Source: Curvularia clavata
Lineage: Eukaryota
Length of the DNA: 64,000 nt
Direction of reading: 5' to 3'
NCBI GenBank assembly: GCA_023920165.1
Contig: CP089277.1
Coordinates: 4,092,001-4,156,000 of the forward strand
The notes under the pieces are model-generated. The model had not been told where the DNA came from, searched no databases, and saw only the letters and a program-made list of their open reading frames with translations. Shown here piece by piece: positions 28,441-58,645 of this stretch (within the stretch, counting starts at the first letter, position 1; each line of letters begins with the position of its first letter). Both the position numbers and the translations under genes were made by a program.

Positions 28441-31429
28441 TCAAGGCACCAAAGCAGTCGAGCGATTCTCTACTCCTGGTGTTGGCGGATCAATGGATGA
28501 AGGCGCGAGCTGCGGTATCAAGGATTTCATCATGAAGACCAAATCGACTGCCTTGAATGGCTTCTGCATCACACGATCCGCTCCTGCAGCCATGGCTGTG
28601 TCGATTTGTTCTTTTCGCACATTGGCCGTTACCGCAATTATGGGAAGTCTTATGGTCCGTCCTTGATCTAGCTCCCTCTTACGAAATTGGCGCATTGCTT
28701 CGAGGCCGTCTAGTACTGGCATTTCCAAATCCATCAACACAATGTCAAAAGTCTGTCGGTCCAAGGAATCGAGCGCTTCGAGACCATGATTCGCTACAGT
28801 GACATGGCAGCCAGCTTTCTTGAGCTGTTTGCCCAGAACTCGCTGGTTAATAATGTTGTCCTCCACTAGCAATACGCGCAATTGCCGGGATGCGAATTCC
28901 TGATTCCCGGTTTGGTGGAACACTTCCTTCAGCGTCTTGGGCTGTCGTTCTACTCTTCGCGTCTTGACATAAAATCCAAATGTGGAGCCCTCGCCCAAAA
29001 CAGAAGCGACACCGATTTCGCCTCCCTGCTTTTCGGTGAGCTCTTTCGAGATGAAGAGACCTAAACCACTGCCTCCGTAGTTTACGTGCGTCTTCACGTT
29101 TGCTTGTCGGAAGCGCTCAAATATCTTCTCAATGTCCTTCTCCTGCAACCCGATACCTGAATCTTCCACACTGAAACCCAGATATATCTCCTCGCCGTCG
29201 CCCCAATCTGGGTTGCATGTCATGTCGCTACGTTGTTCACCGTCGGTCGCCCAGAACATATCGTTAGGAAATAGAGTGCGTGGTTCAGACCTGCTTGCGC
29301 CATAGCGAATTGAGATGACCGGATTTTTGGATGGCTTGACAAATTTAATCGCATTCGTGAGCAAATTAATGAAGATCTGCGTGACCCTAGAAGGGTCGAA
29401 ACAAAGCTGGTCGATGCTTAGATCAACGAGAGATGGGTCTGGTGTTATGCTGTAAGCGATCTTGTTCGTCTTTAGCTCGGCTTCAAAAATATCGACAATG
29501 GAGTCTACGAGCTTCGCAGGTTTAACTGGGACGGGGGTAATTGACAGCAGCATGGAATCGAGTTTGCTCAGAGTAAGAATGTCGTCAATGATCCGTTTCT
29601 GGTGATTTGCACATTGCATAATAATATTAGCGCTGTGCAGATTATCCTTGAGAACATCTACACAAGGTCTGGGTATGCCAGCAATCTGTGCTTGGCATTC
29701 TTCAACGGCATTTGCAATAGCATCTGCACAATGCACAATGGCACTGAGCGGGTTCCGCATCTCGTGAGACACGACGTCAATGAAGGCCTCTTGCTGCCGT
29801 TTCGCCTCTCTGGCTTCAGCAGCCAATCGAGCCTGGAATGTCTTTGCCCAGCATAGCCGGCTGATGTCGGTAGTGCACGCCATGACACTAACCACGCTTC
29901 CGTGTTCATTACGATATGGAAACGCAAGGACTTGAATCTGGGCTGGCTCTGGATCGCCCGTCGGAGGCGTATACAACCTTTTCAAGCGCAGTTCGACGGT
30001 GACTTGGTCGACGCCCTGAAGTAGACGTTCCCAAACCTCCTCCGCTTTTGCACGGTCGTCGTCGTGATATACGTCGAAGAAGGCAAGGCTACCTGCGTGA
30101 TCCTCGGGAGGTTTGCCGGCCAATTCGTAGTAATGGTCATTTGCCCAAAGCATGTATCCATCAAGAGAGACATGACACATGCCCACAGATGCATGATCGA
30201 TGAGGTGCCGGAGCTTGAGGTCACTGAAAGCAAGATCTGCTTCAAGCTGGTCCTGGCGTTTCTTGTTTGACTCATAATCTGCTGCAGCAGTGATGATAGA
30301 CGAAACCATGCGGCTGAGGTCAAGGATGAATTGTTCACATGCTTCGTCGTGTGGACGATACGGATTCGTGCCAAAAATGAGGTAGCCAAAGAGACGCACA
30401 CCGCACATGATGGGCATGAAAACAATTTTCTTGGACGGCACGCCCCAGCCTTTCCAGTCGACAGAGGAGAAGCGGTCGTCGTAGTCAATGATATTTTGGT
30501 CTGTACCCGCTCGCCGCATATCCGGTATGAGTCCTTCTTCGCTGTCGATTGTGGCTGTTTCAACTAGGAGATGGTGTCGCTCAGGGAATCCCATATGCCC
30601 ATACAGTTTGAGCAGATTCGAGCCTGCTGATTCATCCATCTTGTACAACATAGCCATGGGCACATCGTAGCTGTTGGTTTCGAGCGTTGCGAGGATGTGA
30701 GAGCAGACGGTGTCGACAGACCGGGGAGGTACAGCTGAGAGTTTGTTGAGACATTTGGTGCGGCGCTCAGAGAGTTTCTGGGCTGTAACTTCATAACTGC
30801 AAAGCACATCAGCTCTGCGTGCATAAATCTATATATATGCGCTAAGAGTACCAAGGTAGCAGCTGCAGTGTGTCCGAAGCGACCAAAAATACTCACACAG
30901 TATTGGTGTAGCCTTGTACTGCGCCCGGCATGCCTACGGGGATGAAGCCTCCAGAAAAGAAGGCCTCTTCTCGGTAGCCATGGCGCTCGACGAGAGTGGA
31001 ATAATCAGCACTATAGTTGATACCAAAGCCAGTTGTTTTGGCCCGTTCAAAGTAGGGACTGATGGATGGCCACAGCTCCGGATAACCGTCCTGAAAGATG
31101 GATCCCATGAGACGCGGATGGGCGCCGGCAGCAAGAGGCGCGTAGCTATCATTGTAAATGGCAGTCAAATTGTTGATGTCGTCTCCCCACCAGAGGCATC
31201 CTGCACGGGAATCCACAAGCACATAAGTTGCGAACAGCCGCAGCGTCGGGCTCCAGCTGTGGAGCGGGCCCAGGCGTGTACGTGACCAGTCGGTATTGCG
31301 AAAGAAGCGGATGTAATCAGTCTGGGGCAAGGCGGCCGTCCAGTCGCATTGTTTGTCGATAGCGGTCGCAGCTGTGGTTGTGGTCGGGGAAGCGTCGATG
31401 CCCCCGTCGTCGGGCGGTGGTGTTAGCAT
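28441..31429 (-). CDS. Hybrid histidine kinase (PAS-HisKA-HATPase-receiver; group XI-like)
   Basis: DWSRTRLGPLHSWS N-terminus, PAS, H-box SHEMRNPL, N-box QIFINLLTNAIKF, G-boxes DSGIG / GGSGLGLFI, receiver LLVEDN..DIVLMDLEMP..KPF. Intron 30797-30896. Confidence 0.93.
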
Positions 31430-32188: not shown

Positions 32189-33309
32189 TCAACCAGCAAC
32201 AACCCTGCGGTCCCGGATTGTGAGGCCATGGGGATACAGCTCCTCAAAGTCTTGGCTCGTTTCTTCACCGCTCGCTGCTTTTGCGCAGAAACAATACGGC
32301 CGCCCATTGCGATACAGGAGACGGTACTTGGTCTCATCCACCTTGCACCGCTGCACAGTGCGCATTGTCCCATCGGCTTCAATAACAAGAACCGAGTGCC
32401 ACGGTGTTGCTCCGAGTGCGCCCTTCTCTTGTTGTGGGATAACCGCCATGGACAGCTTATCCTTTCCGCCAGAGTCGTGGATGGACAGACGGACATATTG
32501 CGTAGGCACAGCAGCCATGGCAGCCGAGAAGGCCTTCCAGCGACCCATCATCTCCTTTGCTGTGTTGGCAATGTCCACCGTCTGATCCTCCGGGGAAAGC
32601 CCAATATGTTTCTCATTCAACGCCAGATCCTGTTTCAAAAACTCAAGATATTTGGCATGCGTCATCTGCATATCGCTGGTACTAGTATTGGCCATATCGG
32701 CTTCGAATTTGGGATCCCCATATTGTCTCTTGAGCTCTTTGCGAATCTCCAATGCATGGTCGAGATAATACTGCTTCGATTGGAAATCTCCAGGATACCC
32801 GAGAATATCCCACAGTCGCAGGAAGCTGAGATTGTTGAGATTGTTGTCTGCCGCTATCTTTCGAACGCCCTGTCCAAAATTCCATACGGTTTCGTCGCTC
32901 ACACCAAGCAGATCTATTCGCCATTAGCCAGGCACATACTTTGAGCCTAGTATACCAACATACCGTTGTAAACAAGACCATCCGAGGTGATGTGGCACTC
33001 GGCACCGTACTCGTACACTGCTTTGATCTTCTCACACAGCCCGTCGACATGCTTCAACGCAAGCTCCTCACCTAGGTCGGGCAAAACACCCAAGACCTTG
33101 TCCTTTGTATTCGGGGACTTGAACGGGAAACCTGGGAGCAGCATGCGCACAGGCTCTTTACGTTCAACCTGCTCTTTGACAATGGGTAGGAACGTCTCAA
33201 AGCCATCCCATTTGCCTGTCCGTTCGTAATTCAGACCATACCGCTCAATAATCCGGAGTATTTCGTTGGCTTTTGCGTCCACGCTGGGTTCGGTCGGTGT
33301 AGAAGCCAT
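32189..33309 (-). CDS. Isocyanide synthase (DIT1/PvcA family), stand-alone
   Basis: LPGFPFKSPN..KVLGVLPDLGEELAL, ITSDGLVYNDLLGVSD (intron 32914-32963), YVRLSIHDSGGKDKLS, TPWHSV. Confidence 0.9.
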
Positions 33310-34049: not shown

Positions 34050-35887
34050 ACGTGTTTTACAAGCGAGCGGGCCACCTCACCAACTTTGCGCACCTCTATA
34101 AGCATATAGCTCCACCACCATATAACTGTCTTGATATATATTGATATGGGAAATCAAGTTATATCTAGAGTATCTTTCTTACATGTACGCGCATTATGGC
34201 CAGTCTCTCTACACCTGCTACAGCGCGCTAAAGCCTGGCGGCTAACACCTGATCGCTCTCCTCCCTGGCGTTCTTCACAAGCAATCTGCTCATCAGCCTC
34301 ACGTTGAGCAATTATATCCTCGCCAGCTCCCTTTGTAAGCACTCCTTGCTTCTGTATACGCTTTTTTTTACGTTGTTTACGCTTTGTAGCTGCCTCATTA
34401 GCCTGTTCAAGACTGGCGATTCGATCGCGCATTAGCTCAGCCGAAAGCATCATTATCTCTGCCCCCTTCTTAAGCTGGCTAATTGCCGCAATAATTGACG
34501 CTGGTGATGAGCTTTTATGCCGTCGAACGCGTTCACTTATTAGCGTTGATTGAGCTTCAAGCTCGCGTACGTTGCTTGGCGTACAGGCCTGCCAGAGAGC
34601 TTCTGCGAGAACAGCTGGAGGAGTAGGCGTACGCAGCTGTACGTCAAGCTTTGACAGAACAGCTTCTGGCTGGAGAGGAACAAGGCCTGCGCCTCGGAAA
34701 GCTGAGCAGATATTGGCTGGCGTGAAGGATCGATCGAACGCTGCTTTAAACGCTGGCAGAAACTCGAGCTTGGTGATGTGGTTGATATGGTTGCGTATCA
34801 GGCTCTCCACCTCACGGCTATACGCGCGCTTTAATGGCGAGAAGCAGCCAACGTCAAGAGGCTGAAGCAGGTGAGACGAGTGGGGTGGCATACAGAGCGT
34901 GTAGATATTGTTCTCTTTGCAGAGCTCTTGAAACGCAAGAGAGTTATGGCTCTCATGGCCGTCAAGGATAAGCAGACGGCGCGCGCCTACAACGCGAGTC
35001 TTTGTATAGGCGTCAAAGTGCTTTAGCCACTCAACTCCTAGCTCGTTAGTCGTCCAGCCGTTATCGCTAACTGCGATCGCCCAGTCGCGTGGGATCTCTG
35101 CCTCCTCGTACCAGGCAGATAGGTGATGCTTGCCAGTAAAGATTAGAAACGGTGGGATAGACCAGCCAGCTGCGTTAATCCCAGCGATAAACGTCACCCA
35201 CTCGCGACCACCTGGCTGGATAGCCTTTGGTCGAGCTCTTCTTTCTGACGCTGTAATAACAAGCTGAGTAGTAATCTTGCCCATCATAAAGCCAGCTTCG
35301 TCGAAGTTGTAGACGTCCTCGTCACAGATGCCGTACTTGGCTTTTGTCTGCTCCACAAGCTCAAACCAGCTCTTGATTAAGACTGGATCTTCACATAGAG
35401 CTCTCTGCCTATCGTACGCTCGATTGAAACGCGTCGTAAGACTGTCTGTACGCTTGACAAAGTTGCGCGACCAGTGGACACCAACCGTGCCAGCTCCGCG
35501 CGCAGCTAGTAGTCTATCAGCCATATCGCGCACAGCTACATAGGTAGGCGAAAATCCACGTAGATCTAGATCAAGTATATGATCAACTATCACCTCCTCT
35601 TCTAGCTTGGTAAGCTTCTTTGAGTTGGGCTGGCAATCGCGTCGCGCAGGTATACCAGCGCGCCGGCGCTCAAGTGTAGTTCGGGGGACTTTATACATCA
35701 GCGCGGCATCTCTATAAGACTGAATTTGGTTTTGGCTAATAGCTGAGATTGCCAGCTGTATATCAGCTTCACGAGAAACGTTTTGGGCTTGATTTGATGG
35801 AGCCATAAATGATTGAAGTGTAAGAGGTGCGCAAAGTTGGTGAGGTGGCCCGCTCGCTTGTATGGCCCGCTCGCTTGTAAAACACGT
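34050..35887 (-). mobile_element. Complete Fot1/pogo-family (Tc1-mariner superfamily) DNA transposon, 1,838 bp
   Basis: TIRs beginning ACGTGTTTTACAAGCGAGCGGGCCA..CCTCACCAACTTTGCGCACCTCT at both ends. TA target-site duplication at 34048-34049 and 35888-35889. Encloses the transposase ORF. Confidence 0.97.
34154..35806 (-). CDS. Fot1/pogo transposase (HTH-psq, CENP-B HTH, DDE_1, CCHC knuckle), 550 aa uninterrupted
   Basis: [25 protein letters not shown] catalytic motifs; C-terminal [14 protein letters not shown]. Confidence 0.95.
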
Positions 35888-36568
35888 TACCTACAATAAA
35901 CCTCCACATTTTGATACGGCACCTGCAATTAACTACAACCTATGCAAACACCTTTGCGCTCCTCCTCAGACACGAACATGCGTTTGCTTAGCTGTACCTG
36001 GCTTTTCTGACGGAAGGGAGTGACAAGGAGTACGCAGTATCAGACGCTGCTGAATAGTGGCAATCGCGTTGAAATGGGGTGTTTTCCAAACTCTAGCAAA
36101 GCCCGATAGCAATTGGACCGTCGAAATTCCTGGTGTCCTGTCGACAGAGCATGAGATATGGCGTCAAATACGCTGCATCAGTTCCACGACGCAGTTTAGT
36201 AGCGAAAGCCAGCGCTTGGATATGCGAGACTTTGTCGAGTCCCGCACTACCTGAATCCCATGATCATGCTTCGAAAGATTGTCTCACCAGGCACTAGCCC
36301 TAGGTCGCAACGCGTTATCGTAGTGCAGGAGTTGGAAGATACACACCTGACATAACTTTGGGCTCTGGCCGAACCCCGGACGAGTAGACTGTACGTACTA
36401 CGTTGCCTCCTGAGTCGGCAGCCTAAGTACCCTGACTTTGAATTCCTGGAAGATAGCGAATTGTTGAACAATCTGACGAATTAGAATAATCAAGGGACGG
36501 CATTTTACATAGTACCTAGCTCTCGTGTCTCGTATACTATTGGGGAGCTGCATAATCAATTTGAGTGG

Positions 36569-38338
36569 CTAATCTCTACTTTGCGTACTCTCTATGTACT
36601 CCTTGTTAAGTATAGCTTTGTCGGACGAGGAATCCTCTAGAACGGGACTCGACACCACGATGGTAATGGGTTGATCTCCGCCGCGATGATCTTGCGATTC
36701 TCCTGCCTGACTTGCGTTGTACTTGGTGACGAAAGTCTCCACTGGTCGCAGCTCCATAAAACGATCGTCACCCACGTCATCGCCATCACATTCGAATCTC
36801 GTGAAGTTCTGTGTCGACAGTCTGTATGGGTCCTTGCCGCCGTCCTTGGTTCGTTGCTTTGATACCTTGAGCGTGTCGCCTGAGTAGTTTGAGCCAGCGC
36901 TCTTCTTATCTTCTAACGACTTGTAGCTCTTCTTTTTGCTTGATTCGTATGAACGACCACTCTGGCCATAGCTTGAGGAAGTCTGGGTCTTGTTCTTGAA
37001 ACCGTTCACAACGAATCGCATCAGCGGCTGTACTGTAGGGACTGCAGCACAGAAGTGGCCAAGGCCGCTGGCAATAAAGGTGCTTAAAGATGAGGCGACG
37101 ATTGTGTAGGTCTGATCGCTTTTATCGACAACACCCTTCAAGAAGGGGACGCGTGCAATCGAGACCCCAATGATACTGGGCAAGTCAGTAAACGCCGTGT
37201 AAGCATAAAGTGGATGGTGGAAGACTCACAGCAGACCGAGACCAAAGAAAATGAGGATCTCAATCTTCTTTGCTGTCGCCATTTGCAGCTTCAGGACGAT
37301 TGGGACGGGAAGGGCGAACAGGACGATCTCTGCAATAACCTCGTAAACGACTGACAACTTCAGGATGATTAGCCAGTCGAGGCACTTTGCCGTCTTTGCG
37401 GCTTCGAGATCCCATTGAGCTCGAACCGGAATACATCGAATAGCCGCTGTGAAAATGAGAGGAACCGTGAAGCAAGCTGAGAAGACCATGAAGGCGAAGA
37501 CAGCCCGCTTCAACCATACGTTCGGGAAGATGCGGAGATACAAGCACAATATGCTGTACTTAAGTAGCAGCATCTCGGTTGCCCAAAGGATGGTGATGAC
37601 GTAGGCTACACGATTGTCAGTGCGATATGCACGTTGTATGTGTTTGGGTGCGTACTCCACCGCCCAATGTCGAAGACACGTTGATATGTCAAGTCCCAGA
37701 GATGCTTTCCAACTCCTGCGTCGATATTGAGTACTAATGCAACCATGAGCGGAACACATAAAATCTCGAACGATCGTCAGTACAGAAGAGAGCGGCTACT
37801 GCATGCGGACTTACAGCTGACACGAGATGGACCCAATCGTCCCACCAGAAAGGGTTGCCACCAAGCCAACGCGACGCGAAACGCATAGCAACAGCGACGA
37901 CAGGTATTATACCTGTCACATATGCTGTGATCCTCATGACCTCTGTATATGAATCGTGTGGCCGATTGCAGAGATCGGCTTGTACTCGAAGGATTTCTGC
38001 GTAGAGGTCAGCGATATTCAAAATTGATACTGCAATAGACGAACCAAAAGTTTGATCGAGCGTGCATTTCTCCAGCAAGCACGGTTGCAGAATCGCGGTC
38101 GAGTTTCTAGAGTTGCACTGGCACTCAACGTCTAGAAGACCGCAGCCGATAAAAGGCAAGCCCTCTGCGATACATTCAAGCTACCCTAGTCAGCTAGATT
38201 CACGTACTTCTTTGAAAGGGCTTTTACTCCGCATTGTGGAATTTTGGCTATGGCGTCCATGGCGTCGTCTGGTGCTGCAGCCGCCATGCTGAAAGCACTT
38301 GCGCACAGCGTAATCGCGACTCCACGGTACCAAAACAT
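36569..38338 (-). CDS. CFEM-domain Pth11-like integral membrane receptor
   Basis: Signal peptide, 8-Cys CFEM (IPQCG-LECI..GCGLLDVECQC..PCLLEKC..DLC), RFASR..WWDDW, LKYSILCLYLRIFP, C-x-P..W..C, LPVPIVLKLQM..KK. Five introns. Confidence 0.9.
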
Positions 38339-41300: not shown

Positions 41301-44300
41301 ATGTCTTCAAAGTCGGAACAATGTCCAGTCTCAAGTATGGCTGGTGATCATTGCCCAGCGGGGTCTGCTGCTAGCATAGGCAGAAGTCGGATGGGTCCTC
41401 GAGGTTGCACATTCTCTGGATTTGCTGCGCCTGGAGATGTGAATGCTGCGTTTGGAGTAATTGCAAATTCCACACACTTGGAAATGCTGTTGCTGATTAC
41501 AATAGATACCACAACATGCCAACATTGAAGACTTCCTTCGACAAAGGTAGGTATGCCATCAATTCGAGCTAGGACGATTCTGTTAACCAATTAAGGGAAC
41601 GTAAGGCACTCAACGAGCTGATCTATTCGCACGTGCCTTCGATGGACGAGATCAAAAGAATTCAAAATGCTAAAGGCGTGAAGGGTCTTGACACCCTGAA
41701 TATGAATGAACGAGATCTACTGGCAGTTGCGCTTGGTGCACCCGCTCGACAAGTTATACTACGTGCGGAAGAAGTCGGCCCTGCGACGGGCTGGCGAGAT
41801 GGATACTTGAGCACTGAGTACGGCTTTCAACCTCCAGACACAAGCGAGGCTCCAGGTGCTCTACGCAACTCTCCAGGACGAGTGTGGATGGATCTGTGTA
41901 CAAGAATGCCTGGCTGCGTTGCTCGTGGCCGAGTGCGGGAATCAATTGCAGCACTACCCATTATCCAAGGGACGGCCGATACCATCCCAGATAGAGCTCT
42001 ATGGGCAGCTCTGGTTGCCCTTGGTATGCTTTGCTCTATATACCGGTATGAAGAGCGACATGATGGCAATGAGGGCATCAACGTAGCTACAAAGCCTTTC
42101 AAATTGAAAGGCATTTCTGTATGCGACGATCTTGGTGACGAGGTCCAAGGCATCCCTCGTAGCATCGGCCTTCCGTATGTTCAGATTTGCATTCGAATGG
42201 GTCGGTCCATTCCCCACCTCACATTTTTTGACCAGTCGTCTTTCAATGTCGACTACGTTGACCCACTTTCGAAATATCCCTATGTCGGTCGCTTCGACAA
42301 CACCAGGTTACGATGGGGCATGTTCGGTGACGCCGCTGAGAATGCTTTCCTCAAAGGTTGTGCGGATACGGCGGCGAGCTTTCAGCATGGTCCTGATGCC
42401 ATTGCGGCGTGTCAAGAACACGTCATGAACCGTAACAACGAGGGGCTCCTCCGTGAACTCATTCGATTGAAGGAGATCCTGGAACGAATGCCCACAGCCT
42501 TCAACACCATATCGCCTAACGATAGGTCTGGCGAGAACTATGTGTCTCCTACCGAGTGGGTACGCTGGGCCAAGTTCTCAGCGCCTCTGTCTAAACGATG
42601 TCCAGCTACTTCCGGCCTACAATTTCCTCCGTAAGTCAATCCATGTATCTTGAAACTTATTACTAACATGTTTAGGTACCTGGTCATGGATGCCTTCCTC
42701 GGTCGTAAACAGTATAACTCATTCCTTGGCGCTGAAGGTGTACATCTTCGAGCCTGGCTGCCATCGAACCTCCGTGCTTTCATTGCTTCCATCGAGTATC
42801 ATTACCAGGTCCCAGAATATGTGAAGGCATCTGGAGACTCCAGATTGATGGGCGTGCTCGATGGCGTGGTGGAAGCATATACTGGCGAACGAGGCTTTAT
42901 GGGTGCTCATCGGTACAAAGTGTTTGGTGTAAGTCTGTTCTCACTAATATGTTGATCCGACTGACGTTGAAAAGCTACTGGAGTGCGCCGGCAAGTCTGG
43001 CCGGACTGAAACCAATGGGGCTTCTGGAGCTGCTGACGCTCTGAGACCCTGGGAGAAAACGCATGCAGAGTTTTCTGAGGCTATGAAGGAACGTCTGGAG
43101 CCTTTCCGTGGACAGCGCGATGTCGAACCACACGAGATGCGTGGTACATTCGAAGAATGCCGATACCGAGGCAGAATCCTGAGCAGGAACTTCGTCGACT
43201 CAGACTCCAATCGCTCCATCGCGATGGTCACTTTAGACATCCAGGATACCGGCATTACTTTTCAGCCTGGCGACCGCCTTGCTATCATGCCAATGAATAG
43301 CTGGACGGAGTGTGCCAAGGTTGCAGCTGCGCTAGGCCTTGATACTATGCTTGAACAACCTGTCAGCCTGGACCGTACATGGACACGATACGCAGCTCAT
43401 GTTGGCGCCATCTCGCATACAGAGAAGCCTCGGCTCAATGTCATTGATATCCTGCGCAAAGGTCATCTTGCACCGATAACTAAAGAGCTTGCCACAAAGC
43501 TGCATACCCTATTGCGAGCGTCATCGCATGTCGTGTTGCAGGTCCTAGCCACAGACGAATGGCCCGTACGAGCCTCGCTCGGTGACTTACTTCAAGAAGC
43601 TGTGAAAGACACTTCACCACGCATCTGGGATCAAGCATTCGACCTCTCTGGCAATCTGGTCTGGCTGGCAGATCTCATTGCTCTCGAGGTACCACGAACC
43701 TACAGTATCTCCAACTACTCCGACGAACTTCTCCCTAGCACTGTAGACTTGGTATGTTATTTTCTTTGGGCTGACACTCGAGACTGACTTATGTAGACGA
43801 TATCCCGTTCAGAGTACGACCTGTGCCCCACGTTCGCAGGTACTGCCAAACATGTGCGGAACGGCGTTAGCAGTGGCTTCCTAAACCCGCCAGTAGCCGA
43901 AGAGATGGACGTACTTGACGACGAGGATATATTGATCGGCGTGTCAAGGCCTTTCTCATTTCAATTGCCACATGACGATACCTCGCCAGTTGCGCTCTTT
44001 GCAGGTGGAAGTGGCGTGGCACCTTTCCGCAGCTTCTGGCAAGCTCGTTGCAGCAGAGCATGGGGGAAAACTGTCTTATACCTCGGTGTGCAGTCTCGGC
44101 AAAAGTTCTGTTACGAATCTGAGCTTCGTCAGTATGTTAATGAGGGAATGATGGAAGTGCATACGGCATTCTCGCGCGACACGAATGGTCTAGTGTACGA
44201 TCCTGTTTCCAGGGATCTTGTGGAAAAGGAAATGCCTTCACGGTATATTGATGGGCTTATCGTGGAGCAAGGGCAGTTTATATGTGATCTGGTTATGTCA

Positions 44301-46411
44301 AAGGTAAGTTGTATGCTCCCAATCCGGGGAATCTTCGCTAATGTGCTTGAACCACAGAAGCAAGGCGGCATTGGTGGCTACCTTTACGTATGCGGTTCAG
44401 CCGGAGTGTTTGATTCAGTGATGTCCGGCATTCGCCAAGCGCTCTATAATCATCGATCACCCACTATGGAAACTGTGGAGACCATATTGAATACTGCATT
44501 TGCCGAGCGACGCTTTATGCTCGACGTCTTTATGACCCCAAGACCGCTACCTTGCAACCAACCTACGATATCGCTTTCGCAGTTGGCTGTCCATACCGGC
44601 CATATCAAAGGTTCGCGCGTATGGATAGGAGTGCATGGTAAAGTCTATGATGTGTAAGTGTACAGTCCACTCACTCAATGGCTCATATGTGCTAAGATCG
44701 CCGCAGCACCGACTTCTGCGCAATGCACCCAGGTGGTACCAACATCATCAAATCCAACGGCGGTGTAGACTGCACCAAGTCTTTCGATCTGTTGGCCCAT
44801 ACCAACAATCCCGAGGTTTCATCTCTCTTGACCAAGTACTGCATTGGAGAATTGACCCCGAAGCCCGCTTTTCAATCCGAGGACATTAGCATGCTTTACG
44901 ATCTATGGCAGGGCTATCTTCGTGTCGCAACTGAACAAGTGGTCGCGTCGAACTTCGAGGTTGGTATGATCACAGAGTCGCCGCTCGTATGGTTCCAAGG
45001 TGACCTCTTCAACATGGGAGGTGTACGCAGGTTCTATCACTATCAGTCCCGCCTGTTGGAGGGTGGGTTTTCGACTCTCTTTGGAGCGAAACTGCAAGAA
45101 CTGTACCTGAAGATCTCATTCACTCTCGCTAATGTCTCTTCAGCCAACACGCAGTTGTCCGACGTCCTTGGTGTAATCGCTCGTGCTAAAGGCTCCCATG
45201 ATGCTGTCACGGCGTGCCATGAGATTTCTCAAATCGGACAATTCACCTGCGACAGTGAATCTGCTCGTCACCATGAGAAAGGTATAATCGCATATGCGCA
45301 GCGGTCTGTTCAATACGACATGGAGTTTCTCGAGGCTATTAGGGAAGAAGCGTGTACGGGTATGGATGCCTTTGACAGTATCATGGAGCTCGATCTTCCA
45401 TCCAATTCCGAACGAGTCACTGCACTATCCACGTTTCTCATGCAAGTACTCGAAAGGATGGCGAATCGCCTCGAAGGTTTTTACGCCAAGCTCGCTCGTC
45501 ACTCCGTATTCCAACCCAAGATAGAGAGAAACCCGGCTCGTGCTCGATGGAACATTCTCAAGCGGAAGGTTTGGGACAAGTCCTTCTTTATTCTAGCTCG
45601 CGACACATCTATTCAGCCAGCTGCTAGATATCCCACCAACGGTGTCGATTTCGACCGTGTCATATCCCAGATTGAGATGAATCTGAGCAAATCTTCGCCA
45701 ATGAAGGCACGGACCATGGGGCTCAACGAACAGCATGCCGCTCGTGCGATGAGCACTGCAAGCGGTAGCCCTGCGTACGAACAGCACACGCAAAGTAACG
45801 CTCTCAAGGCGATGTCGACTTTTATTGATACTAACAAAAAGGCTATTCGGCGTTTGAGTAAATTACCCCAGGCTATCGATCTGAAGCAATTGATGCAAGC
45901 CTATGGATCGCTACCCCAGGGTAGTCATGGGCTGCAAACACCGCCGTCGAGTCGATCGCCATCGACATCGTCCTCGACAAGATATCCAATGGAACGCCAA
46001 CGATCCAGGACACTCAATGATATGCCACAGCCGTTACAACATCGTAGTACTGCTATGTCTGACTCGGCACGCTCAAACTCAGGTACATCGGCTTATGCGT
46101 CACCAACTGCCGCCATGTCCGCATTGATGACCCAGATGAATACCCGCAAGAAATCCATAACCTCACCAGTCGAGCGAAGCTCTGAATATGGCGATCAGAA
46201 TCGAGCGCGGTCAATGCAAGCATTTTCTGTGCAGAGGCTGGACAGCATGGGTGCGCTAGGAAATACAGGGTCTGATAATGGAGCTGGTAGTCGTATGGAT
46301 AGCATGCATGTGCGTTCTCAGAGTACCACTGGTAATTTGAGGGCGTTTCGACTGCAAGCGAGTACTATAGCTGGTGGCATGAACCGGAGACGCGATATAG
46401 AGCGGACTTAG
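41301..46411 (+). CDS. Multidomain oxidoreductase: IDO/PrnB-like heme domain + FAD/NAD(P)H reductase + cytochrome b5 (~1,590 aa)
   Basis: Seven introns (41457-41505, 41547-41595, 42631-42675, 42929-42974, 43752-43796, 44304-44357, 44654-44706) give one frame. Reductase motifs PRTYSIS, GVSSGFL, FAGGSGVAPFRSF, AFSRD, YVCGS, RFMLDVF. Cyt b5 WIGVHGKVYDVTDF..HPGG..DCTKSF..AH. The N-terminal IDO-like call is inferred from weaker motifs. Confidence 0.85.
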
Positions 46412-50186: not shown

Positions 50187-53100
50187 ATGTCAGCGCATCA
50201 AGACACCGATCACATACCTGTGCCGTTCATGGCCGAGTCAATGACTAATAGCAACATCTCGAATGGTTATGACAATGGGGTTAACAGCCACACAACTGAC
50301 GATGCCATCGGCGGCAGCAATGAAATCGATATCCCCTTTAATGCTAGAAATGGCCATGACAGAGGCTATCCTCGTGTAAACGGCACGGCTAATCAGTCTC
50401 CAGGAAAATTCACTTCCAAGAGCGAATCCAACCGGGAATCATATGAACCAATCGCCATTATTGGCTGTGGGATGCGACTTCCCGGTTCTATCGACACCGA
50501 CGAAGCCCTCTGGCAGCTTTTGAGTGGGAAGCAGGACGGTCGCTGCCGGGTCCCTCTGGACCGATACAATGTTAATGCCTTTTACGGCCCTGGGAAGGCC
50601 GGCCATGTTTGCACAGAATTCGGGTAAGATAGTCGCGGCTTGATGGCACCACCATATGAACGCGCATTTACAAATCATTTAGGCACTTCCTTGAGCATGT
50701 AAACCTCACTGAAATCGATTCTTCGTTTTGGTCCATGACACGCAAGGAGATCGAAGTGATGGATCCGCAACAGCGCCTTGCTCTGGAGGTTGTTTACGAG
50801 TGTCTACAAAGCTCAGGCACCACTGACTGGAAAGGGAAGGATATTGGTGTCTTCTTTGGAATCTTCGGCGAGGTAAACCTCACAGATTTTCTCTCAGGCT
50901 TTTGGAAGATGATGGTGAATGTTTCTAACTAATCCACTAGGATTGGGCCGACATGCAAGCAAAAGAACCCCAGCAATCTGGCATGTACCGCATCAGTGGA
51001 TCTGGAGACTTTGTGGTAGCAAACAGAGTTTCGTACGAGTTCGATTTCAAGGGACCTTCGTAAGTGATTGAAACTCAACAGGCTTACCGATTGTGTGTAA
51101 TCCTATTTTTCTGACAATCATAGTGTCGTAACTCGAACTGCTTGCTCGTCCTCATTAACTGCGCTGCACGACGCCTGTCTCGCAATACAGCGAGGCGAGT
51201 GTGAGTCTGCAATTGCAGGCGGCACCAATTTGATTATGAATCCGCACATGACAATCGCCATGGCTGAGCAGGTAAGGCCGCTGAATGTTCCGTTCCCTTA
51301 GTCATTCTGCTTTGTAGGCTGCCGCGACATAGAGCTCACATGACCGCTGTGTTTCCCAGGGCGTCCTCTCAAAAGATGGGCAATGTAAAACTTTTGACAG
51401 TGCTGCCAATGGATACGTCAGAGGCGAAGGAGTCGTGGCAATCCACGTCAAGACTCTATCTGCTGCAATCAGAGACAATGACCCGATCCGAGCTGTCATT
51501 AGGTCCTCGTGCACAAATTCAGATGGCCGAACAGCTGGTATGGCTCTACCTAACTCCGAGAGCCACGAAGCACTTATGAGGCACAGCCACATATTGGCAG
51601 GCCTTGACTTAAGACAAACTGCCATGATAGAATGCCACGGAACAGGAACGCAAGCAGGTGATCCACTGGAAGCCTCTGCGGTTGCACGCGTTTTTGGCGA
51701 TTACGGTATATACATTGGCTCCATCAAACCAAACCTTGGACATTCTGAGGGGGCTTCAGGAATCACGAGCGTTATCAAGGCCATGTTATCGCTCGAAAAA
51801 AGGCTCATTCTCCCAAACATCAACTTTCACAGTCCCAACAAGAAGATACCTTTCGATAAATACGACATATCTGTACCCACTGAAGTCCTATCATGGCCAA
51901 AAGGTAAGGCAGAGAGAATCGGTGTGAACAGCTTCGGAATTGGTGGTGCAAACGCTCATGTCTTGCTCGAGTCCCCGACTCAACATGGCATCACGCGATC
52001 CCAACCATCAGAATCGAACGTGCAATCGCATTACCTGCTTACCTTTTCTGCTGCAAGTTCTGAAGCTCTCAAAAGTACTATCAAAGCACATGGGATATAT
52101 TACCAAAACCATTCCGATCGTCTTGCGGACCTCAGCTATACTCTTACAGTCAGACGGCAACCTTTGGAGCAACGAGCATTCTGTATCGTAGCAAGCGGTG
52201 CGGACCCCAATGAACCGCTCCAAATATCTCCATTCGAATCTTCACGCGAGACACGCTTAGCGACGTTTTTTTTTACTGGCCAAGGTGCTCAGTATGCGCA
52301 AATGGCAGCAGACTTGCTCTGTACCAATGTCGTTTTTCAAACCAGTGTGGCGTCAATGGAAAAGGTTTTATCCGAATGTGATCCCCCACCCACGTGGTCT
52401 TTACGAGAGGAACTTCTTAAAAACTCAGAGGAAACAAACTTGGCTCGGGCAGAGTTTTCTCAATCGTGCTGCACCGCCTTGCAAGTCGCCCTTGTTGATG
52501 TTTTGAAGTCTTGGGGCGTGAAGCCAACTGCTGTAGTTGGTCATTCGAGTGGTGAGATTGCAGCAGCTGTAAGTCAACTTGCTGACCTTTATATACGTAG
52601 GTGCTTTTGATGCTGACAGATCACGCCAGTATGCTAGTGATGTACTATCTGCTGCAGATGCAATCAAGGTCGCCTACTATCGAGGAATTGTCTCAAAAAA
52701 TGTTACGACTAATGGAGGAATGATCGCAGTCGGCCTCTCATGCAGTCAAGTCAAACCGCATCTGAGGCTAGGAGTCATTATTGGATGCGAGAATGGCCCG
52801 TCGTCTACCACTCTAAGTGGCGACTCGAACATGCTCCAAAAGGTCGTGGACAGTATCCGTGTTGAATATCCAGGGGCTCTGGTGCGACATTTACGTGTCG
52901 ATTGTGCTTATCATTCTCATCATATGAAGCCTGTGTCGTCCTCCTACGCAGCTTTCTTGTCAAGGATCCAGGCTAAGCGCCCAACTATTCCATTTTACTC
53001 CTCTGTCACAGGCGAGAAGGTACTTTCCGCTACGCTGGATGCATCATACTGGGTTTCAAACTTGACTTCTCCGGTTTTGTTTTATCAAGCAGCGTCTCAG

Positions 53101-56100
53101 CTGTTGAGCGACTTCCCGGAAGCTGTGCTCTTGGAGGTTGGCCCTCATTCAGCATTAGCTGGTCCTCTTCGACAGATAATAAAGGCCACGAATTCGGAGA
53201 AATCAAAGTATGTTAGCACGCTTATCCGAAACGAGAATGCTTCTGCCGCGATTTTGAGTAGTGTCGGCACCCTATTCCAAAATGGCGTTCCTGTACGTTT
53301 TGATCACGTAGTGCCAAAGGGCAATGTCTTGACGGACTTGCCAAAGTATGCGTGGCATAGACAAGGTCCTTACTGGAATGAGAGTCGTCTATCGCAAGGC
53401 TGGAGGCAGCGAGAATTTCCCAAGCATGATGTTCTCGGCGCGCGTGTGGTGGAAGCCTCGGAATACAACCCTACCTGGCGCTGTTTATTGAACCTCGACG
53501 ACGTACCGTGGATCCGCGATCATGACATTTCGCAAGATATTGTCTTCCCTGGGGCTGGATATGTGGCCATGGCAGGTGAGGCCATACGCCAACTGACCGG
53601 CGAAATCGATTTCACTGTGCGCGAAGTCACAATTAGCAACGCTTTAGTGCTAGTGGAAGGTGCTACAACCGAGGTAATTACTCATTTCAAACCAGTACGC
53701 TTGACGACCGCTCTGGACTCGACTTGGTACGACTTCGAAATTACATCTTACAACAGTAGCAACGGTCGTTGGATCAAGCATGCTGTCGGCCAGGCGCGAG
53801 GTGGGTGTAGCTACAAGATCAACCCACCCAAAATTGGTTCCGAGAAGCGGATGGTGGAATCGCCAAAGTGGTACTCAGTCATGAAGAGGTTCGGTCTAAA
53901 TTATGGCCCACGCTTTATGGGCATGAGAAAGATCACAGCCGGAGTTTCAGAGCGACGGGCGGTGGCTTATATCGATAATATCGCCGAGGATTGGGAAAGC
54001 TTCTATGCGATGCATCCGTGCACAATTGACTTCGCCTTTCAACTCTTCAGCGTCGCAGCTTTTAAGGGCTTATCTCGTCTGTTCACCCAATTATCCGTAC
54101 CAACCTATATCGGAGAACTTTATCTCCGGCCAACAGTCTCGGAGATGCTTGTCGCAGTAGATGCCGAACTCACCCCAAGAGGTGCATTTTTCGGAGACGC
54201 CGTCGGAATATCGCCGGATATTGGTACTGTTTTCAGGTTGAAATCCCTCAAGATGTCACCATTGACAGACTCGACCGACGTACGCGGTAACGACCCCCAC
54301 GCTGCCGCAGAGTTGGTGTGGAAACCGGACGTCAATCTGCTGGACCTTAAGGATTTAATGCATGTAACCAAACATTTTGGTGGTCTCATACTTATGGTCG
54401 AGAGAATGGCATTGGCATGCATAATCGAATCAAGCCTTCTTCTGGCGAAACGAGATATCGACGACGAGTTCTTATCAAGGTTCCGCATCTGGCTTGACAA
54501 GGTGTACCATGCTGCACTGAAGGGCGATTATGAGCCAGTCAAGGATGACAGCCACATTGCAGAAATGACCTCGACTGAACGCCTCTCAATGATTGAAACC
54601 CTACACCGAGGGGCTTTGCAGACTGACGCTTGGCCTATTTCGACAGCTGTGTATAGAATATTTCATGCCATCGAAGGCATCGCTGCTGGTACCACTGAGG
54701 CACTACAAGTGCTGCTAGAAGGCGACCTTCTAGCCCGAGTATACGATTTTCAAAGACTTTCAAACTTCGACGAGTTCTTTCAGTTGGTATCACATCAGAA
54801 GCCTGACCTCAGGATCCTTGAAGTTGGTGCAGGAACGGGTAATGCCACAGCCGAGATCCTTCCAGCCTTATCCAGCCTCAAGCCCTATAACGATCGCAAT
54901 TATCTGTCATATACATTCACGGACGTGTCACCTGGCTTTTTCGAGAATGCAAAGCAAAGGTTCAAGGACTATGACGCTATAGAGTATCGGGTGTTGGACA
55001 TCACAAAAGACCCAGTGAACCAAGGCTTTGAGGAGGGCATCTTTGATATTATCGTAGCGTCAAATGTAAGGCGACTTTTGAAAATTGCATATACAGCAAC
55101 ACCGGCTAATCATGGCACAGGTCCTGCACGCGACGCCTAATCTTGTGCAAACTCTGACCCACTGCCGAAAGCTCCTCACGACCGAAGGATGGCTCTTCCT
55201 TCAAGAGCTTTCTCCACCAGGGAAGTGGATCAATTATGTTATGGGAGTCTTGCCTGGATGGTGGCTCGGTGAGAGTGACGGCCGGATAGAGGTGAGTATC
55301 CCATTATCGAGTGAAGCCGAACGGCTTGTTTATCTAATTATTCGTTGATAGGAACCGTATCTATCCCCTCAACAGTGGGAACCATATCTTAATGCCGCTG
55401 GGTTCAATGGTATTCAATCAGTTCACCACGACGAGCAGTTGAACGCTACCATGGTGTCCCGGCCTACAAAGCAACTGAGTGCGAAGAGAGTAACCATACT
55501 CGCTAAGGACCTATCACTGAGTTACGTGGCTGAGATATCATCCGAACTGCAACTGGAATATCAGATTGATTGTTGTGCATGGGGCGATAAGTGTCCAGAA
55601 GGGCAAGACATTGTTGCAATACTCGATCTGGAAGCTCCATTTATGCACAACATTGACGACGCGCTTTTTTCTCAGTTCAAATGTTTTTTGTTGAAATTGA
55701 AGCAAGATGGTGATGGAATTCTATGGGTGACCGGTAATGCGCAAAACAATTGCTCAGATCCGCGATACGGCTTGTTTCTGGGGTTTGCAAGAACATTGCG
55801 GACGGAGCTCGAACTCCATCTAGGGATATTGGAGTTGGACAGCTTTGGAAAATCTGCTTGGAAATCGATCCCAAAGGTCTTCTCCAGATTTCAAGACCGC
55901 GCTTTCACCGAAATATCTTCGAAGAAACCTGATATGGAATGGGCTTTCGTAAAAGGCGAAATAATCATTCCACGATTCCACTGGACATCGGTAAACCAAG
56001 CACTGGCCGCGCCTCGATTAAAAGAACAAGCGCAAAAGCTCGAAATACAGAAGCGGGGAATTCTGAGCTCACTCTACTGGAAACAATACACGCCGGCTGA

Positions 56101-58645
56101 ACCTCAAGGTGCGTCTGAACCGAACGGTATGTATTGCAAAAGTGATGAACACTGATACTACATTTTGGATGTCACAGGCGATTACATCCGCATACGAAAT
56201 CACGCAGTAGGGCTGAACTTTAAAGATGTCCTCATTTCGATGGGAGTTGTCGAAGGTACCGTCATAGAGGGAGACGGCTTAGGGTCTGAGAGCGCGGGAA
56301 TTGTGGAAAAGGTGGGGCCAGAGGTAAAGAATTTGGCGGTAGGAGATCGGTGCATAGTTTTTGCAAGCGGTGCATTCGCAACATCTGTAACAGCTAGCGA
56401 GAAGGTTTGTGTAAAGATACCAGACTCTCTATCTTTCACAGATGCAGCGTCCATGGCTACAGTCTACTGCACGGCCATATACTCTGTTGTCGATAAAGCG
56501 AGACTCGAGAAAGGACAGGTCAGCAAACCCTTTCCTTTTTGGTGACTGCTCTACTAATTCATGGTCAGACGATTCTTATCCATAGCGCATGTGGAGGTGT
56601 TGGTATTGCAGCTATTCAAGTGTGGTATGTGCATTCTCTAATACTGACGCGCAAGTACGCTAACAGAACGCGCAAGTCGGGCCTTTGGTGCAGAGGTGAG
56701 TAGCATCCTTTTCAAAAAGTGAGAATTCATTTAATCAAATCTATCAGATTTACTGTACGGTTGGAAGCGAAGAAAAGGTCAAGTGGTTGATGGAAAACTA
56801 CCATATTGCAAGGGACCACATATTCAACTCGCGCGACCAAACCTTTCAACGGGATGTACTAGAAGCTACGGCAGGCAGGGGCGTCGACGTCGTGCTGAAT
56901 TCAGTGCGTCACCTCTTACCTTTCTATTATTGTTTTTCCCACTTACCAACAAACCATAGCTATCTGGAGAGCTTCTGCATGCTAGTTGGCAGTGCGTGGC
57001 TGAATTCGGGTGCATGGTTGAGATTGGCAAACGTGATCTTATTAATAAAGGCAGCCTTGCTCTCGACCTTTTTGAGCGTAACAGGTCTTTTTTTGGAGTC
57101 GATTTTGCACAAATATGTGGTCAAAAACCAGAAATTGCTTCAAGGAAAGTGTAATTCCATACCATGGTTATGGATGTAGATTTGACTGAATTTTAGGCTG
57201 CTCAAGAAGATGATGGAAATGTTCAAACGGGGTGATATTGGGCCTATTCATCCAATCACTGAATTTCCAGCCAGTCAGATTGAAGATTCGATGCGTTTCA
57301 TGCAAAAGGGAAGTCACATCGGCAAAGTGGTCGTCTCACTTCCAGAGACTGCCGAGTTACCCAGTAAAACGGGCAAGGAAGTCCTCCAGCTACGTAAGAA
57401 CGCTTCATATCTCCTCGCTGGTGGATTAGGAGGTCTTGGTCAGGCTGTTGCAGTTTGGATGGCGGAAGCCGGAGCGACCGAGCGTGAGTTTTCCGTGAAT
57501 AAACAATGAGAGGATATTGTGTTAACATATTTGATAGTCATATTTCTCTCCCGATCCGCTAGAGCCGAGGAGACTTGCAGCAACTTCGTTGCGGAACTAG
57601 AAGGGCTGGGTTGCAAAGCAATCATAATCCAAGGAAGCGTTATCAACAAAAACGATGTTGAAAAGTCGATGCGCGCTGCAACAAAACCTCTTGCTGGAAT
57701 CTTACAAGCATCAATGGTACTACATGTAAGTTGGCCATAGCTCCAAAAGATAGCCCAATTACTGATACTGGATGACAGGATGTTGCTTTCCCATCAATGT
57801 CATTCAAAGACTGGAAAAGGGTTATCGAGCCCAAAGTAAAAGGAACTTGGAATCTTCACAACGTCTCCGTAAACTTTGGTCTCAACCTGGACTTCTTTCT
57901 ACTCTTCAGCAGCTGGAGTGGCCTTTTTGGACAATGGGGTCAGGCAAATTATGCCGCAGGCAATTCATTTCTTGACTCTTTTGCCCAGTACCGACGAAAC
58001 ATGGGTTTAGCAGCTTCCACAGTAGACATTGGCATTATGGAAGATATCGGATATGTCAGCCGTAACGCTCACGTACTCGAGCATTTCCGCACCACCTCAA
58101 CCCACGTCCTACATGAACAAGACCTGCTGGACTCACTTCATTTGATGATCAATCGAGGTGCACCAAAATCGACTGAGAAATGCCAGCTCGCCATTGGACT
58201 ACGTTCCACTCAGCCTCTATCTGCACCAAACAACCGCACTATATGGAGAAAAGATCCGCGCATGTCTCTGTACTTTAACACAGAGAGACACGTTGGTGCG
58301 ACTGTGGCAACAAACAGCGACGAACTTCGACAATTTCTCGTAGACGCGGCTGAAGATATTGCAATCTTTGACAACGAAGAGTCAACCAAATACATCGCAA
58401 CAGAAATTGGAAAAACGTTGTTTGCCTTTTTGATGAGAGATGTCAAATCTCTTGACATTACTGATTCTTTGAGCGCATTGGGAGTCGATTCGCTTGTTTC
58501 GATCGAGTTGAGGAATTGGTTTAAGCAGCGGTTGGGCTGTGAGATAACTGTTCTTGACATCTTGGGCTCGTCGAGTATTTTAGAGCTTGGACAGCATACT
58601 GCGACGCTGCTGAAAACAAAGATGACAAGCTTAAAGTCTTGTTAG
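50187..58645 (+). CDS. Highly reducing iterative type I polyketide synthase (KS-AT-DH-cMT-ER-KR-ACP)
   Basis: KS TACSSS / ECHGTGT / [16 protein letters not shown] / [30 protein letters not shown] / [26 protein letters not shown] / YAAGN; ACP GVDSL. About 15 introns including a 19-nt exon (56677-56695). Confidence 0.95.

Follow-up and report, generated by a model that had tools for sequence, protein, structure and literature searches.

Enzymes of the indoleamine 2,3-dioxygenase (IDO) type have so far been run on artificial reductants, their natural electron donor is debated, and their relative PrnB has proved hard to reconstitute in vitro. As far as the accessible text of three reports goes, cytochrome b5 (b5) has been proposed as the physiological reductant of IDO (PMC4191572), IDO monooxygenation takes reductant at each turnover while dioxygenation takes electrons only to restore the ferrous heme (PMC12921851), and in MarE a changed GTGG loop goes with monooxygenation (PMC11904535). 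Here we describe a gene of Curvularia clavata located in a 64,000-nucleotide stretch of contig CP089277.1 (assembly GCA_023920165.1, positions 4,092,001 to 4,156,000; hereafter the window), in which an IDO-fold heme domain, an FAD/NADPH reductase module lacking an FMN domain, a b5 domain and a helical bundle follow each other in one polypeptide. That a single gene carries this four-domain architecture is almost certain. We suggest that the protein is best explained as a heme oxygenase that belongs to the IDO family, is His-ligated and is self-sufficient, a reading in which our confidence and our doubt are evenly balanced.

Introns are short in this fungal window, and the single gene of about 1,590 residues proposed in a first-pass annotation of the sequence corresponds to a model of 8 exons and 1,589 amino acids (Table 1). 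Its seven introns are all GT-AG and 45-54 nt long, its translation has no internal stops, and independently annotated homologues align with it end to end (best, 89% over 1,577 columns). The domain junctions all lie within exons (heme-reductase in exon 5, reductase-b5 in exon 7, b5-bundle in exon 8), so the fusion is independent of splicing. In the public contigs of run X1, tentatively taken as RNA, introns 5 and 6 are absent from one contig and intron 7 from a second; runs X9, X14 and X15 gave short pieces alone, with no usable joints. With six of the eight exons as queries, Pfam matched IDO (E 5.9e-8, 32.3 bits, cut-off 26), FAD_binding_1 (2.9e-12), NAD_binding_1 (8e-9) and Cyt-b5 (3.8e-7), each exceeding its cut-off. 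All N-terminal motifs quoted by the first-pass annotation are present in the protein (GFQPP, SGLQFPPYLVMDAFLG, AHRYKV with H489, and GRTETNG), as are HPGG with H1029, and H1053. The domain order proposed there stands, but the heme domain ends near residue 537 (43100) and not 480, the reductase spans 43164-44534, and intron 7 splits b5. Beside its only intact copy the genome has a single broken fragment of the gene (L013, G000:C5:3271742-3272278), which is 76% identical in nucleotides along 526 nt, contains 10 stops and adjoins a transposase-like open reading frame (ORF) close to a contig end. Upstream of the gene, the non-coding window segment 40439-41320 shares 73% identity over 893 columns with fungal locus L176, which suggests that regulatory sequence is conserved there.

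The fold of the heme domain was assessed on a model of the bacterial homologue P0283 (1,147 aa, 79 sequences; mean pLDDT 93, pTM 0.93). In structural comparison this model matches IDO2 at Z 41.5 (2.0 A, 357 residues) and IDO1 at Z 39.6, the IDO2/IDO1 matches together spanning 2.0-2.1 A over 354-357 residues, followed by PrnB (Z 26.2, 10% identity) and SO4414 (Z 24.4); MarE is not among the best 50 structural matches listed. These Z scores belong to the bacterial homologue, and the fungal heme domain is tied to IDO1 through a match of the heme-domain family profile (E 8e-12) together with the fungal-bacterial profile alignment. On the strength of the homologue model, the heme domain is predicted to be closer to IDO1/IDO2 than to PrnB. 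The IDO/TDO/PrnB-like fold anticipated in the first-pass annotation holds as an IDO fold, through Pfam, profile and homologue model, with PrnB the more distant match.

The pocket was compared in an alignment of 46 main fungal, 4 second fungal clade, 4 other eukaryote and 74 bacterial-type rows and 2 rows of long fungal paralogues. The H489 column is His in 45/46, 4/4, 4/4 and 74/74 rows of the first four groups, and from an alignment with the genome's own IDOs, no coordinates being involved, we infer that H489 is the counterpart of IDO1 H346 and the proximal heme ligand. R505 and T508 are each kept in 45 of 46 fungal and 73 of 74 bacterial-type rows, and the residues conserved in both fungi and bacteria are H489, F317, W387, S405-G406, K492, K502, G504, R505 and T508. 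Using IDO1 and CPR (cytochrome P450 reductase) residue numbers mapped through the alignments, we take F317 to be IDO1 F163, W387 to be F226 with the aromatic character kept, and S405-G406 to be S263-A264; the A264/G265 positions have changed to G406-L407. Arg231, the carboxylate binder of IDO1, is missing: fungi have A391/K392 there and 66/74 bacterial-type rows have Ala, with a register good to one residue either way. All 46/46 main fungal rows have Gln where IDO1 has C129, and 42/74 bacterial-type rows have Gln where it has S167; the two may represent a swap of one polar contact. The loop reads GRTETNG in fungi, GRxxTxGG in bacteria and (G)TGG in the genome's own IDOs; neither the GTGG loop nor the Arg231 of a canonical tryptophan 2,3-dioxygenase is found in the fusion family. 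The first-pass annotation took the altered loop as its sign of changed chemistry. The sequence is indeed changed, but its Thr is kept, and for this reason the lost Arg231 and the remodelled pocket would be the stronger sign.

The same residues bear on a different reading, in which the protein is a tryptophan/indoleamine 2,3-dioxygenase after all, true though divergent, and the fused reductase and b5 would serve only to re-reduce heme that has autoxidised. In its favour, IDO2 and IDO1 are the nearest solved folds of the homologue model, far over PrnB and SO4414, the proximal His, the F163 and S263 equivalents and the loop Thr are retained, and the invariant R505 or K392 could stand in for Arg231. 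Against it, Arg231 is absent, G406-L407 replaces A264/G265, Gln occupies the C129 position, and the family is a clade on a long branch, separate from the IDOs of this genome (SH-aLRT 98.7 in the heme-domain tree). Moreover, at least four further genes of the IDO type are present in the genome, one of which adjoins a kynureninase-like gene (name read from sequence), and no kynurenine-pathway gene is among the annotated recurring neighbours of the family. Widespread low-efficiency IDOs, as described in the accessible part of PMC4191572, speak for the dioxygenase, which on balance we consider quite unlikely. A further stand-alone IDO-like gene in this genome (L009, G000:C5:1858579-1858995) is a weak match (E 2e-5) unmatched to the fusion family.

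In the electron-supplying half of the protein, R736, S739, S880-R881, C935, D979, F981, H1029 and H1053 are present in 89/89 fungal rows, and both b5 His in 65/66 bacterial-type rows; we take F981 to be the flavin-shielding residue and S880-R881 the NADPH-type pair. The P0283 model matches SiR-FP60 at Z 38.2 and b5 at Z 14.9 (rmsd 1.0 A over 80 residues). Pfam found no flavodoxin (FMN) domain at E<=0.1 in 4/4 full-length fungal homologues, 49/49 other homologues scanned gave no hit to it either, and the interdomain space is too small for it; the NCBIfam cysJ match is well under cut-off. The first-pass descriptions of an FMN-less reductase of the CPR or nitric-oxide synthase (NOS) type, supported by the Pfam FAD/NAD domains and catalytic residues, and of a b5 with both His ligands are thus borne out, and we infer that b5 fills the role which the FMN domain has beside a CPR-type module. 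The fungal C-terminal domain, the helical region of the earlier description, is modelled as a helical bundle (pLDDT 89), and the tail is Ser/Arg-rich and disordered. The bundle has no specific structural match (best Z 8.1; nothing in Foldseek at E<=0.001; best Atlas value 0.87, with low recognition) and no Pfam or NCBIfam match, and its likeness to the FBXL5 hemerythrin (Z 7.1) is in the background range, a single Trp reaching 90% conservation in alignment A5. In 117 long homologues the heme domain is better conserved than the reductase, with median identities to the model of 74% and 68%; b5 reaches 79% and the bundle 54%.

A search with exon 3 as query matched 275 longer proteins. All four Pfam domains occur in 114 of the 120 matches listed, the gene is kept across Pezizomycotina at 55-89% identity, and the named matches belong to Dothideomycetes, Leotiomycetes, Sordariomycetes and Eurotiomycetes. 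Orthologues from saprotrophs include PODANS_4_4900 of Podospora anserina and SMAC_03811 of Sordaria macrospora, and no Neurospora record is among the entries listed. In 45 fungal-type metagenomic loci the four domains are complete wherever a contig end does not intervene. Most entries are named 'sulfite reductase flavoprotein alpha', 'NADPH-hemoprotein reductase' or 'cytochrome b5-like', while 'related to nitric-oxide synthase' and 'putative indoleamine 2,3-dioxygenase' occur once each; of the first-pass expectation that such proteins be auto-annotated as NOS or P450 reductase, the P450 reductase-like label was found, NOS hardly.

Beyond fungi, the heme-domain profile matched 597 cluster representatives. 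Among 144 proteins examined (143 new ids and the model), the architecture is complete in 67 and a further 4 have a cut heme domain, while 15 combine heme domain and b5 without the reductase, arising at several tree positions. Named non-fungal members come from Caldilineaceae, Sericytochromatia and Rhodelphis marinus, and two genome scans gave at least 160 loci in Chloroflexota, Actinomycetota, Myxococcota, Bacteroidota, Oligoflexales, Poribacteria and Gammaproteobacteria, the actinomycete members including proteins of 1,100 aa (Dactylosporangium, Micromonospora); a single-protein scan with P0269 matched nothing. The same four-domain protein in bacteria and in Rhodelphis is new here, and the family is larger than the first-pass annotation could see, being bacterial-eukaryotic and tied to signalling modules. 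The profile of the fungal proteins aligns collinearly with that of the bacterial ones along 1,090 columns (probability 100%, E 3e-126). In the reductase-module tree the fungal module clusters with those of the bacterial fusion proteins and away from the diflavin reductases of this genome (support 0.88); a 204-aa outgroup fragment that landed within the family, on a long branch, was disregarded. Given this collinearity and the separate heme-domain and reductase clades, the data fit a fusion that arose once. Eukaryotic members form one clade (0.999 in one tree, SH-aLRT 86.7 in another). One tree nests this clade, weakly supported, among the bacteria, and two make it their sister group.

Several variants accompany the main family. 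Long fungal paralogues (P0248, P0256, P0280, P0286, P0336; 2,360-2,600 aa, one from Cyphellophora europaea) have the four domains and a tail of 1,200 aa in which the motif GxVGMWMxP recurs; Tyr replaces the proximal His in both that were aligned, and they are probably pseudoenzymes or Tyr-ligated variants. A second fungal clade (P0402, P0133-P0135, P0239) has the pocket CMAEVH vs GCADTS. Periconia digitata carries both clade types (50% identity), and a partial Serendipita record suggests that Basidiomycota may also have a second-clade member. Extra fused domains (gamma-glutamyl cyclotransferase-like, FHA, EF-hands, DsbA-like and reductive-aminase-like) were seen in P0277, P0307, P0312, P0315, P0320, P0348; P0266, P0303; P0243, P0249; P0291; and P0322.

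Combining the conserved cofactor sites with the confident full-length model, the retention of b5 in reductase-less members and the report on IDO and b5 (PMC4191572, in its accessible part), we suggest that electrons very probably run internally from NADPH through FAD and b5 to the catalytic heme. Short forms drop the reductase and keep b5, pointing to b5 as the likely direct donor to that heme. In this model, NADPH would pass a hydride to FAD, and FAD would hand single electrons to the b5 heme, which would stand in for the FMN domain of CPR and NOS; the helical bundle would keep b5 against the catalytic domain, and b5 would reduce the catalytic heme, where O2 would be bound. The chain, already proposed in the first-pass annotation, has gained support from the invariant residues and the short forms and stays conditional. 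Given the fused NADPH module, the remodelled pocket and the spare canonical IDOs, we tentatively favor NADPH-consuming monooxygenation of tryptophan or another indole/aromatic compound, like that of MarE or the HPIC route of IDO, at a confidence falling slightly short of even; the product would be a regulated small molecule and not a feed for NAD synthesis.

The bacterial neighbourhoods suggest what might regulate such a protein. After de-duplication 148 loci were counted, 139 of them with >=900 nt upstream. Among these, a gene for a tandem-CBS protein is present at 75 of 121 reductase-bearing, 0 of 13 reductase-less and 1 of 5 cut loci, and lies within 1 kb in every locus measured. The 0/13 count is confounded by clade and carries no weight as a sign that CBS binds the reductase, because reductase-bearing clade-mates mostly lack CBS too. 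A histidine-kinase cluster occurs at 16/79 loci (3 of 4 checked are PAS-HisKA-REC hybrids), a PAS hybrid kinase lies upstream at many myxobacterial loci, and a DsbA-like gene is found at Bacteroidota loci; these annotations come from representatives of recurring clusters. The tandem-CBS proteins, about 147 aa long, are a distinct family (L016-L095, e.g. L021:5531-5971) with no NCBIfam fit; among the matches listed they adjoin the bacterial gene in 69/80 loci, with an occasional receiver-domain fusion. In several Chloroflexota loci a 390-aa protein lies downstream (L118:8501-9667, L016:9573-10745), followed in L016 by PIG-L deacetylase genes.

Alternatively, the IDO-fold heme may act on nitric oxide (NO), nitrite or O2, as an NO dioxygenase, a nitrite-to-NO reductase or a controlled source of superoxide/H2O2 in the manner of NOS or flavohemoglobin, its output gated by nucleotide, calcium or phosphorylation sensors. 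The CBS-pair neighbours (75/121, some receiver-fused), the PAS-HisKA-REC kinases, the FHA, EF-hand and DsbA-like fusions and the Ala in 66/74 bacterial-type rows at the Arg231 position are consistent with such an enzyme, but regulatory neighbours are compatible with any regulated enzyme, and the aromatic pocket and the loop Arg/Thr are conserved as for an organic substrate. Pfam found neither NOS oxygenase nor globin domains, the N-terminal domain having the IDO fold instead. In the accessible parts of the literature, the NO sources of fungi are unsettled (PMC10889981) and mollusc O2 carriers evolved from IDO-fold proteins (PMC4191572), whereas four Neurospora 'NOS-like' knockouts left NO unchanged, the deletion of NCU01086 altering neither NO nor growth (PMC4948021). 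Were NCU01086 the orthologue, a role as NO synthase would be weakened and the gene dispensable in the laboratory. The available portion of a Fusarium NO preprint has CPR and P450 as its subject and mentions neither indoleamine nor b5. Taken together, we consider action on these small molecules unlikely. Worded more broadly, as a sensor-gated signalling enzyme on the IDO fold that makes or destroys a diffusible messenger and is a functional counterpart of NOS, the proposal becomes possible though rather unlikely; CBS in bacteria, EF-hands in Rhodelphis and the C-terminal extension in fungi would be the switches, and an oxidised indole, NO or reactive oxygen species the messenger. If true, such an enzyme could explain part of the 'NOS-like' activity of filamentous fungi.

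Several observations weigh against the self-sufficient oxygenase that we prefer. The loop Thr, which is supportive of dioxygenation, is retained in nearly all members. The heme domain and reductase occur without b5 in 10/144 proteins, of which one looks frameshifted and the others may be cut. In bacteria and fungi none of the recurring neighbours points to an indole pathway: neither a kynurenine-pathway gene nor a widely shared biosynthetic gene is among those annotated, and no prn neighbours are in the recurring clusters. The X1 contigs retain introns 1, 2 and 4 unspliced, do not display intron 3 and none covers the whole gene; exon 8 has a contig depth of 36 against 8-11 elsewhere, inexplicable from the contigs. 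Finally, in the accessible part of PMC11791213, PrnB with b5 or CPR in vitro gave no product, so a donor role of b5 is not proven across the whole superfamily.

The immediate surroundings of the gene (Table 1) include a reducing polyketide synthase (PKS) downstream and a DIT1/PvcA-family gene upstream, and repurposed IDOs in fungal clusters have reportedly been described in one study. The protein could accordingly be imagined as a tailoring enzyme of a local polyketide or isocyanide cluster. The window's PKS, DIT1/PvcA, CFEM and transporter genes have no match in the 45 fungal-type loci, many of them short, and on this ground cluster membership was rejected; the gene is single-copy here and conserved in four Pezizomycotina classes, and we regard a cluster role as highly improbable. 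The PKS region has two internal ORFs without Pfam match, and GC drops to 37% toward the window end.

Table 1. Positions in the window of the fusion gene, its parts and nearby genes
Feature	Position	Strand	Remarks
Whole gene	41301..46411	+	8 exons, 1,589 aa; model and collinear annotated homologues
Exons	41301-41456, 41506-41546, 41596-42630, 42676-42928, 42975-43751, 43797-44303, 44358-44653, 44707-46411	+	
N-terminal extension, fungal	41301..41740	+	aa 1-114; exons 1-2 and start of exon 3
IDO-fold heme domain	41741..43100	+	aa 115-537; interrupted by introns 3 and 4; Pfam IDO
H489, putative proximal heme ligand	42908..42910	+	alignment conservation
K502-x-G-R505-x-x-T508-N-G loop replacing IDO GTGG (JK) loop	42993..43022	+	alignment with genome's own IDOs
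FAD/NADPH reductase module and connecting domain, no FMN domain	43164..44534	+	aa 559-982; motifs R736-x-Y-S739, GGSG, S880-R881, C935, D979-V-F981
Cytochrome b5 domain	44559..44854	+	aa 991-1071; split by intron 7
b5 ligands H1029; H1053	44726-44728; 44798-44800	+	
Helical bundle	44882..45508	+	aa 1081-1289; common to bacterial members
Fungal extension and Ser/Arg-rich tail	45509..46411	+	extension aa 1290-1410, median 42% identity; tail poorly conserved
PAS hybrid histidine kinase	28444-30828		
DIT1/PvcA-family gene	32192-32923		~8 kb upstream
DDE transposase	34157-35890		
CFEM-rhodopsin receptor	36569-38180		
Reducing PKS, KS-AT-DH-MT-KR-ACP	50187-58645		start ~3.8 kb downstream

A natural IDO-b5-reductase fusion makes transfer from b5 to the IDO heme testable in one protein with NADPH and O2 only, and presents a CPR-type module with b5 as FMN-domain stand-in. 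The names sulfite reductase and P450 reductase would have to be replaced on hundreds of fungal and bacterial genes, most filamentous ascomycetes sampled would share a conserved reaction, and a self-sufficient indole oxygenase could serve as biocatalyst. Searches of the open literature turned up neither a description of the architecture nor, as the first-pass annotation had supposed, a biochemical characterisation; subscription papers, among them the series by Yuasa and Ball on fungal IDOs and the work on a 'NOS-like' gene of rice blast, might mention the gene.

The protein shares with IDO1/IDO2 and the fungal IDO alpha, beta and gamma the fold (Z 39.6-41.7 for the bacterial homologue), the proximal His, F163, S263, the loop Thr and b5 as proposed reductant, but it adds reductase, b5 and bundle, lacks Arg231, has W for F226 and KxGRxxTxG for GTGG, and forms its own clade. 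With PrnB and MarE it shares the His-heme superfamily, altered loops and, according to the accessible parts of two reports (PMC11791213, PMC11904535), reductant-dependent non-dioxygenase chemistry, whereas these two are stand-alone enzymes situated in biosynthetic clusters and PrnB is the lower structural match. With CPR, SiR-FP, NOS and P450 BM3 it has in common the FAD/NADPH module, connecting domain and Ser/Cys/Asp set (Z 30-38), and with P450 BM3-type fusions and NOS the logic of a self-sufficient heme-reductase; unlike the diflavin enzymes, it has no FMN domain, places b5 after the NADPH domain and uses a His-ligated IDO fold instead of a Cys-ligated heme. Eukaryotic nitrate reductase, Ncb5or and b5-fused desaturases pass electrons from NAD(P)H through FAD and b5 to a catalytic centre in a single chain, with b5-reductase-type FAD domains and other catalytic centres; to our knowledge none of them has an IDO domain. 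The fusion protein is thus a member of the IDO superfamily by fold that differs from canonical IDO1, diflavin reductases and NOS in their defining features, and its closest working parallel would be the FAD-b5 chain of nitrate reductase, here supplying electrons to an IDO heme.

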